Source: Escherichia coli (lineage in GTDB: Bacteria; Pseudomonadota; Gammaproteobacteria; Enterobacterales; Enterobacteriaceae). From it: DNA of 64,000 bases. The notes beneath the pieces are model-generated. The model made no database searches, was not told where the DNA came from, and saw only the letters and a list, made by a program, of their open reading frames with translations. Within the stretch, counting starts at the first letter, position 1. Every line of letters starts with the position of its first letter. The stretch lies in the NCBI RefSeq assembly GCF_003334405.1, contig NZ_QOWM01000003.1. One strand, written 5' to 3'. Position numbers and translations under genes: made by a program. Shown piece by piece: positions 43,239 to 43,357 of this stretch.

Positions 43239-43283
43239 ATGAATGCTGCTATTTTCCGCTTCTTTTTTTACTTTAGCACCTGA
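43239..43283 (+). CDS. pheM: pheST operon leader peptide (14 aa, Phe-rich)
   Basis: ATG AAT GCT GCT ATT TTC CGC TTC TTT TTT TAC TTT AGC ACC TGA = [14 protein letters not shown]; 5 Phe codons. Confidence 0.9.
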
Positions 43284-43330
43284 ATCCAGGAGGCTAGCGC
43301 GTGAGAAGAGAAACGGAAAACAGCGCCTGA

Positions 43331-43357
43331 AAGCCTCCCAGTGGAGGCTTTTTTTGT
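43331..43357 (+). terminator. pheST attenuator (rho-independent terminator)
   Basis: AAGCCTCC-cagt-GGAGGCTT followed by TTTTTTT, downstream of the pheM leader peptide. Confidence 0.85.

Follow-up and report, generated by a model that had tools for sequence, protein, structure and literature searches.

Several leader regions of Escherichia coli control transcription by coupling the position of a translating ribosome to termination. The trpL, hisL, leuL and thrL leaders belong to the same mechanistic class as pheM, with regulatory codons placed in a short ORF and a 1:2 / 2:3 / 3:4 hierarchy of helices that links ribosome position to termination, and they differ from pheM in the regulatory codon. 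The pheL-pheA leader is the other E. coli member of the Rfam family RF01859. It also senses charged tRNA-Phe, and it shares with pheM a Phe-rich leader ORF, a protector helix formed between UUU/UUC codons and a GA-rich strand, and an intrinsic terminator. The pheL peptide differs in sequence from the pheM peptide, and whereas pheL controls a biosynthetic enzyme (pheA), pheM controls an aminoacyl-tRNA synthetase itself, with pheS and pheT lying downstream. In Firmicutes, the T-box leaders of pheS act on the same genes and respond to the same tRNA-Phe charging signal via antiterminator/terminator choice, but T-box RNAs bind tRNA directly and, unlike pheM, have no leader peptide.

pheM is the standard E. 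coli example of an aminoacyl-tRNA synthetase operon under leader-peptide attenuation; it is annotated, modelled in Rfam, and has been under experimental study since 1983. That attenuation operates both in vivo and in vitro is taken here from the literature. Attenuation control of the pheST promoter transcript is described in PMC4082710 (citing Trudel 1984, Springer 1985, Mechulam 1987, and Gollnick & Babitzke 2002), and three papers (PMC4082710, PMC5371410, PMC9291695) state that experiments in the 1980s demonstrated attenuation and that read-through changes with the level of charged tRNA (citing Fayat 1983, Trudel 1984 and Springer 1985). Alternative pheM structures, RNase III cleavage inside the termination structure, and 5'-RACE ends falling within that structure are reported in PMC5371410. 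A transcriptional pause in pheM with a half-life of 25 s is neither lengthened nor stabilised by NusA, unlike the pauses of hisL, trpL, leuL and pheL (PMC9291695).

Here we analysed a 64,000-nucleotide stretch of E. coli DNA (the window), in which a preliminary description had placed a pheM leader peptide and attenuator upstream of pheST. The site is almost certainly the leader of the E. coli pheST(-ihfA) operon, with the pheM ORF and a ribosome-mediated transcription attenuator. The attenuator raises expression of phenylalanyl-tRNA synthetase (PheRS) when charged tRNA-Phe is low, and the element at this site is already known in every respect.

Results and Discussion

Identity and genomic context of the pheM leader

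The Rfam model RF01859 (Phe_leader) matched positions 43233-43357 (+) from end to end (model positions 1-125 of 125) with 75 bits and E = 6.8e-11 against a gathering score of 55, and RefSeq has the features 'pheM: pheST operon leader peptide PheM' and 'Phe leader region' at coordinates identical to those found here. Megablast with 43100-43600 gave matches in all 5,426 complete E. coli genomes, with 100% identity to E. coli K-12 MG1655. Compared with K-12 pheM (b1715) and its pheST-ihfA attenuator, the site has the same flanking genes, the same distance between the pheM and pheS ATG codons (328 nt) and the same promoter position (Fayat 1983 via PMC4082710), and no difference was detected. A T-box covariance model had no match to 43100-43600 at its gathering threshold nor at E <= 1, so by this measure the region does not belong among T-box leaders.

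RefSeq gives the gene order thrS, infC, rpmI, rplT, pheM, pheS, pheT, ihfA, btuC. The products L20 (rplT, TIGR01032), PheS (TIGR00468, 402 bits), PheT (TIGR00472, 1009 bits) and IHF-alpha all score above the curated NCBIfam equivalog cutoffs, and the leader thus occupies the place of a pheM orthologue, directly upstream of pheS-pheT and downstream of rplT. The elements that frame it are listed below.

43127..43155, + strand: intrinsic terminator of rplT, AGAGGGAG/CUAGU/CUCCCUCU followed by a U-rich tract (-17.2 kcal/mol, z = -3.8)
43172..43200, + strand: pheM/pheST promoter, with -35 TTGACT (43172-43177), a 17-nt spacer and -10 TTCAAT (43195-43200), read directly from the sequence
43239..43283, + strand: pheM leader ORF including its stop codon, read directly from the sequence and annotated in RefSeq
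43567..46952, + strand: regulated genes pheS (43567-44550) and pheT (44565-46952), from NCBIfam equivalogs and RefSeq
46957-47256: ihfA, downstream of pheT

The rplT terminator closes the upstream infC-rpmI-rplT unit. A consensus terminator scan did not pick it up, its T-tract being interrupted (TTTTCGTTT), and a consensus promoter scan missed the pheM promoter because the -10 hexamer has no A at position 2. According to PMC4082710, which quotes Fayat et al. 1983, the native pheST promoter 'TTCAATA' lies 368 nt before the pheS ATG; since 43567 - 368 = 43199, the promoter read here is that same element. Transcription probably starts at ~43207.

Two further observations concern this upstream region. 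In E. coli CDE2901-yvys (L085), and in this one strain, an IS200C element (712 bp, tnpA) sits at 43153/43154, directly after the T-tract of the rplT terminator and 18 nt upstream of the pheM -35 hexamer, leaving promoter and attenuator intact. Further upstream, infC starts with an ATT codon (41871-41873), the known non-canonical start of IF3, and because of this start the ORF list holds only a shorter GTG ORF from 41979 for infC.

The pheM ORF runs from an ATG at 43239-43241 through 14 sense codons to a TGA at 43281-43283, behind a weak Shine-Dalgarno sequence (AAGG, 43224-43227). Codons 6, 8, 9, 10 and 12 (43254, 43260, 43263, 43266 and 43272) encode Phe, which makes this a short translatable leader ORF rich in codons of the sensed amino acid. 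In a survey of the whole window that covered ATG ORFs 8-40 codons long in either strand (n=917), pheM had the highest Phe density (0.36). Eight other short ORFs among the 917 also reached five Phe, so Phe composition alone is not decisive and conservation is what decides. The preliminary description thus proved right in its reading of a 14-codon ORF with five Phe codons, and its naming of pheM and the pheST context agrees with the RefSeq annotation, the K-12 identity, the RF01859 match and the pheS and pheT equivalogs.

Predicted competing helices and their dependence on ribosome position

The 125-nt leader (43233-43357) folded to -53.7 kcal/mol, compared with -32.1 +/- 3.6 kcal/mol for 200 dinucleotide shuffles (z = -5.96), and 0 of the shuffles did as well as the real sequence. 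Three helices make up the competing structures.

43248..43324, + strand: protector helix 1:2, pairing the Phe-codon strand (43248-43272) with a GA-rich strand (43300-43324), found in both MFE and centroid folds
43289..43338, + strand: antiterminator helix 2:3, pairing GGAGGCUAG.GCGU (43289-43302) with GCGCCU...AGCCUCC (43323-43338), found in nascent-transcript folds
43329..43356, + strand: intrinsic terminator 3:4, with stem 43329-43338/43343-43352, loop CAGU and T7 at 43350-43356, found in folds and by terminator scan

The leader ORF is therefore separated from the first structural gene by an intrinsic terminator, and the antiterminator helix predicted next to it shares a strand with the terminator. 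These two helices are mutually exclusive because both use the terminator 5' arm. In isolation, the protector (a duplex of ~27 bp) has a calculated energy of -36.2 kcal/mol, the antiterminator -17.0 kcal/mol, and the GC-rich, 10-bp terminator hairpin AAAGCCUCCC/AGU/GGAGGCUUU (43329-43352) -14.9 kcal/mol. This calculated order of stability, protector over antiterminator over terminator, is the one that an attenuator requires. A small hairpin enclosed by the protector buries the GGAGGCUAG strand of the antiterminator.

Equilibrium folding of the full leader under a ribosome mask kept the terminator at every ribosome position, and it was set aside as the wrong test for a kinetic switch. Nascent transcripts were instead represented by RNA ending at 43340 or 43342, before the terminator 3' arm exists, with the ribosome masking an assumed footprint of 28 nt (a modelling choice). 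With the A site on Phe codon 6, 8, 9, 10 or 12, positions 43332-43338 paired with 43289-43295, and this helix was extended by pairing of 43296-43302 with 43323-43328, which completes the antiterminator. In the nascent folds with no ribosome, the Phe-codon strand paired with the GA-rich strand to give the protector (43248-43324). A ribosome at the stop codon left the outer protector pairing in place, and its footprint lay over the start of the antiterminator strand; a terminating ribosome covers this 5' strand because it begins 6 nt past the stop codon. In neither of these two states was the terminator 5' arm paired with the antiterminator strand. The model thus predicts that ribosome position chooses the fold, with stalling leading to the antiterminator and a ribosome at the stop codon, or none, leading to the terminator.

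Because equilibrium folds always keep the terminator, the switch is seen only under a kinetic, co-transcriptional assumption. This assumption is standard for attenuators.

Conservation across Enterobacterales

A PheS scan with one genome taken per species yielded 80 Enterobacterales loci from Escherichia, Salmonella, Citrobacter, Enterobacter, Erwinia, Pantoea, Dickeya, Pectobacterium, Rahnella, Serratia, Yersinia, Hafnia and Edwardsiella. In 78/80 loci the leader ORF retained its TGA stop and the peptide core FRFFFYFS[TA], with a T-run ~110 nt past the ATG, and the remaining two, which are cut off upstream, still gave partial matches to the RF01859 model. Variation was found in the N-terminal residues (MNAAI, MHAS, MMHVVT) and at synonymous positions (TTC/TTT, CGC/CGT). 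Spacing between pheM and pheS is very variable in the order, at 156 to 396 nt.

The ribosome-mask folding was repeated on the 75 distinct orthologous leaders obtained from the 80 genomes. Folded one sequence at a time, and so free of any alignment, all 75 leaders were predicted to form the antiterminator (mean -18.1 kcal/mol, with a mean of -14.4 kcal/mol for the terminator), and the terminator core GCCUCC/GGAGGC was paired in 75/75. Stalling at each of the five Phe positions produced the antiterminator in 71/75 leaders; one of the four exceptions (L081) clearly has the antiterminator in its fold. The antiterminator was absent without a ribosome in 73/75 leaders and absent with a ribosome at the stop codon in 75/75. 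Enterobacterales therefore keep the peptide core, the position of the stop codon and the three-helix logic rigidly.

These folds, in E. coli and in the 75 orthologous leaders, bear out in silico the transcription attenuation layout that had been proposed for this site. The GC-rich hairpin and T7 run named in that proposal correspond to the 10-bp stem at 43329-43352 and the T tract at 43350-43356. The accompanying suggestion, to look for alternative antiterminator and terminator pairings that exclude each other, was followed, and such a pair exists in the predicted antiterminator (43289-43302 with 43323-43338) and the terminator.

The helices were also compared in a covariance-model alignment of the orthologous leaders, which matched at E <= 1e-18. 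Protector positions were 94% paired across the 75 sequences, compared with 47-63% in slid controls, which were evaluated over the entire structure. Both partners change in five protector pairs, and for 4/5 measures the observed values were reached by 0/500 shuffles. As an example, a Phe codon changes from UUU to UUC only if its partner is G. Covariation in the predicted protector helix thus exceeds both the shuffled and the slid controls.

The antiterminator core is supported by a different kind of evidence, namely conservation together with compatible A/G changes. This core (GGRGGC:GCCUCC) is near-invariant because GCCUCC must pair with two different partners, and its near-invariance is the reason that compensatory changes are not seen there. 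Variants of the MFE helix suggested covariation among four pairs (C-G, U-A, G-C, A-U) linking the opening base of the terminator loop with the base 5' of GGRGG, but this was rejected as being at chance level; in a direct test of this antiterminator extension pair, 17/71 were paired, compared with a shuffle mean of 18.5. Column pair counts for the terminator and antiterminator, from MAFFT as well as covariance-model alignments, were discarded as unreliable, with AAGCCUCC and AGCCUCCC one column out of register. This one-column misregister of the GCCUCC arm affects many alignment rows, and 25 'both-sides' changes at columns 63/118 were an artefact of it.

Proposed mechanism and alternative explanations

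In the mechanism we propose, the promoter at ~43172-43200 would give a leader RNA of ~150 nt, and a ribosome would translate the 14-codon pheM ORF with RNA polymerase still transcribing the leader, a kinetic coupling that we presume here. When Phe-tRNA(Phe) is plentiful, the ribosome should reach the UGA at 43281 and cover the 5' strand of the antiterminator, which would let the hairpin at 43329-43352 form with its U7 tract and stop transcription at ~43356. When Phe-tRNA(Phe) is scarce, the ribosome would stall on the Phe codons (43254-43274) and keep strand 1 off strand 2. Strand 2 would then be free for GGAGGCUAG.GCGU (43289-43302) to pair with 43323-43338 before the terminator 3' arm is made, and the resulting antiterminator would allow polymerase to read through into pheS and pheT. 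Without any translation, the very stable 1:2 protector would sequester strand 2, making termination the default.

An attenuator has to be weighed against other readings of the same structures. The hairpin and T7 run might separate the rplT and pheST units as a constitutive terminator or insulator, with no switch and with a Phe-rich ORF that is accidental, a by-product of the U-rich strand required to pair with the GA-rich strand. The U-rich Phe-codon strand does form one side of a helix, five Phe are reached by chance in nine short ORFs of the window, and the terminator is always the favoured fold at equilibrium. However, the pheM hairpin is not simply the rplT terminator, because rplT terminates at its own hairpin at 43127-43155, and the promoter comes next. 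An accidental ORF also fits poorly with an order-wide conservation of the frame, the ATG, the TGA and the FRFFFYF core among varying N-terminal residues and synonymous positions, or with a ribosome-position-dependent antiterminator conserved in 71-75 of 75 leaders. Attenuation control has moreover been reported experimentally (PMC4082710, PMC5371410, PMC9291695), and we regard the absence of a switch as scarcely credible.

Another explanation would place control mainly after transcription. Cleavage by RNase III of the 1:2 duplex, and perhaps of a 145-nt repeat further downstream, could set pheST mRNA stability and dominate over attenuation. The predicted protector, a duplex of ~27 bp, is a plausible RNase III substrate, the repeat forms a hairpin of ~60 bp, and the pheM attenuator is cleaved in vitro, with the downstream transcript decaying faster in wild type than in an rnc mutant (PMC5371410). 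The same paper nevertheless treats cleavage as an extra layer upon the known attenuator. The Phe codons, the conserved frame and the antiterminator would be left unexplained, and the repeat cannot be the core mechanism because it is missing here in ~12% of E. coli genomes and in all other genera examined; dominance of RNase III is very improbable. Equally hard to credit is that the terminated leader RNA or the PheM peptide also acts in trans, by analogy with rnTrpL/peTrpL in Sinorhizobium. Trans-acting products of attenuators are known elsewhere (for instance PMC7298713), and the C-terminal Y, F, S and T/A of PheM are conserved beyond the needs of Phe sensing alone; yet the codons for these residues sit in the protector helix, so that RNA pairing explains their conservation, and no pointer to any target was found here. 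Action in trans would in any case add to attenuation and not replace it. Ribosome-mediated attenuation therefore remains our reading of the pheM leader.

With regard to RNase III, the site listed as 'Intergenic (pheM-rplT)' in PMC5371410 (K-12 position 1799278) corresponds to window position 43231, 8 nt upstream of the pheM ATG.

Palindromic repeats between the attenuator and pheS

Between the attenuator terminator and pheS, and thus outside the attenuator, the read-through leader contains a repeat and a small hairpin.

43376..43520, + strand: palindromic dispersed repeat of 145 nt with 16-nt terminal inverted repeats (43380-43395 and 43505-43520)
43538..43553, + strand: small hairpin GUGUCA/CCAC/UGACAC (alternative CAGUG/CACUG), just 5' of the pheS Shine-Dalgarno sequence GAGGA (43558-43562)

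In folding, the 145-nt repeat gives a single long hairpin (-55.7 kcal/mol, z = -5.1). It occupies the pheM-pheS site in K-12 and in ~88% of E. coli genomes, and it is absent from this site in one E. coli of the ortholog set (L002), in Salmonella, in Citrobacter amalonaticus and in the other genera examined. Copies are unannotated and number a median of 5 per E. coli genome. No Rfam family covers 43376-43520, and a literature search for a published description of the repeat found none. In size and copy number, the repeat may fit the 'RSA' repeat of the K-12 genome paper. A second copy, ~83% identical, was seen in the E. coli qseE-qseG-glrR operon (L083:1501-1644 and L084:1501-1644), where it fills the 164-nt qseE-qseG spacer.

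The insert resembles the ERIC/IRU elements in being a long imperfect palindrome of ~130-150 nt, in lying in transcribed intergenic DNA inside operons, and in copy number, from a few to some tens in each genome. Canonical ERIC elements do occur in the same spacer, between the pheM terminator and pheS, in two Yersinia loci (L062 and L063, + orientation) and in four loci from Citrobacter and a MAG (L007, L013, L014 and L032, - orientation). They share 38-40 of 42 identities with the ERIC primer core, and those of L007 and L063 match over their full length. Because their orientations are opposite, the Citrobacter and Yersinia insertions are independent. An ERIC core probe, validated by its strong matches in Yersinia and Citrobacter, scored 54-68 in the spacers of these genera versus 28 in the E. 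coli insert. Compared at full length with bona fide ERIC copies, the E. coli insert gave z = 1.8-3.7, with the likeness limited to a central palindrome of ~21 nt. Identity of the insert with canonical ERIC/IRU was thus ruled out, as full-length similarity to the ERIC consensus is lacking.

It is doubtful that the spacer hairpins, the 145-nt repeat and ERIC alike, form a second, lineage-specific layer of control on the pheST mRNA. Such a layer could act through RNase III or RNase E entry, and through mRNA stability or translation efficiency. Were it real, PheRS expression and attenuator gain would differ between strains that carry the insert and strains that lack it. The repeated colonisation of the attenuator-pheS spacer by palindromic repeats could be of modest interest for ERIC-like elements and for strain differences in 5' UTRs.

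Other structured elements in the window

A hairpin of 5-7 bp like that at 43538-43553 recurs before pheS. Among 72 distinct orthologous leaders its stem takes 44 different sequences, and most of these hairpins end 15-18 nt before the ATG. In per-sequence folds the mean z was -1.6, and z was below -1.5 in 40/72 leaders; some Kosakonia, Enterobacter and Citrobacter have only a weak hairpin or none. RNAalifold applied to a MAFFT alignment of the region upstream of the pheS Shine-Dalgarno sequence returned no structure, the alignment being out of structural register.

Two further Rfam families matched elsewhere in the window. The sRNA STnc540 matched at 47198-47356 (+) with 67 bits against a gathering score of 38, and this match, which contains a strong terminator-like hairpin, spans the 3' end of ihfA and the intergenic region between ihfA and btuC. 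ES036 (CssrF) matched twice on the - strand, over 43 nt each, at 19102-19144 (43 bits) and 26248-26290 (55.5 bits), with a gathering score of 37.6. Lying 7 kb apart, the two ES036 copies suggest a short repeated motif and not two sRNA genes.
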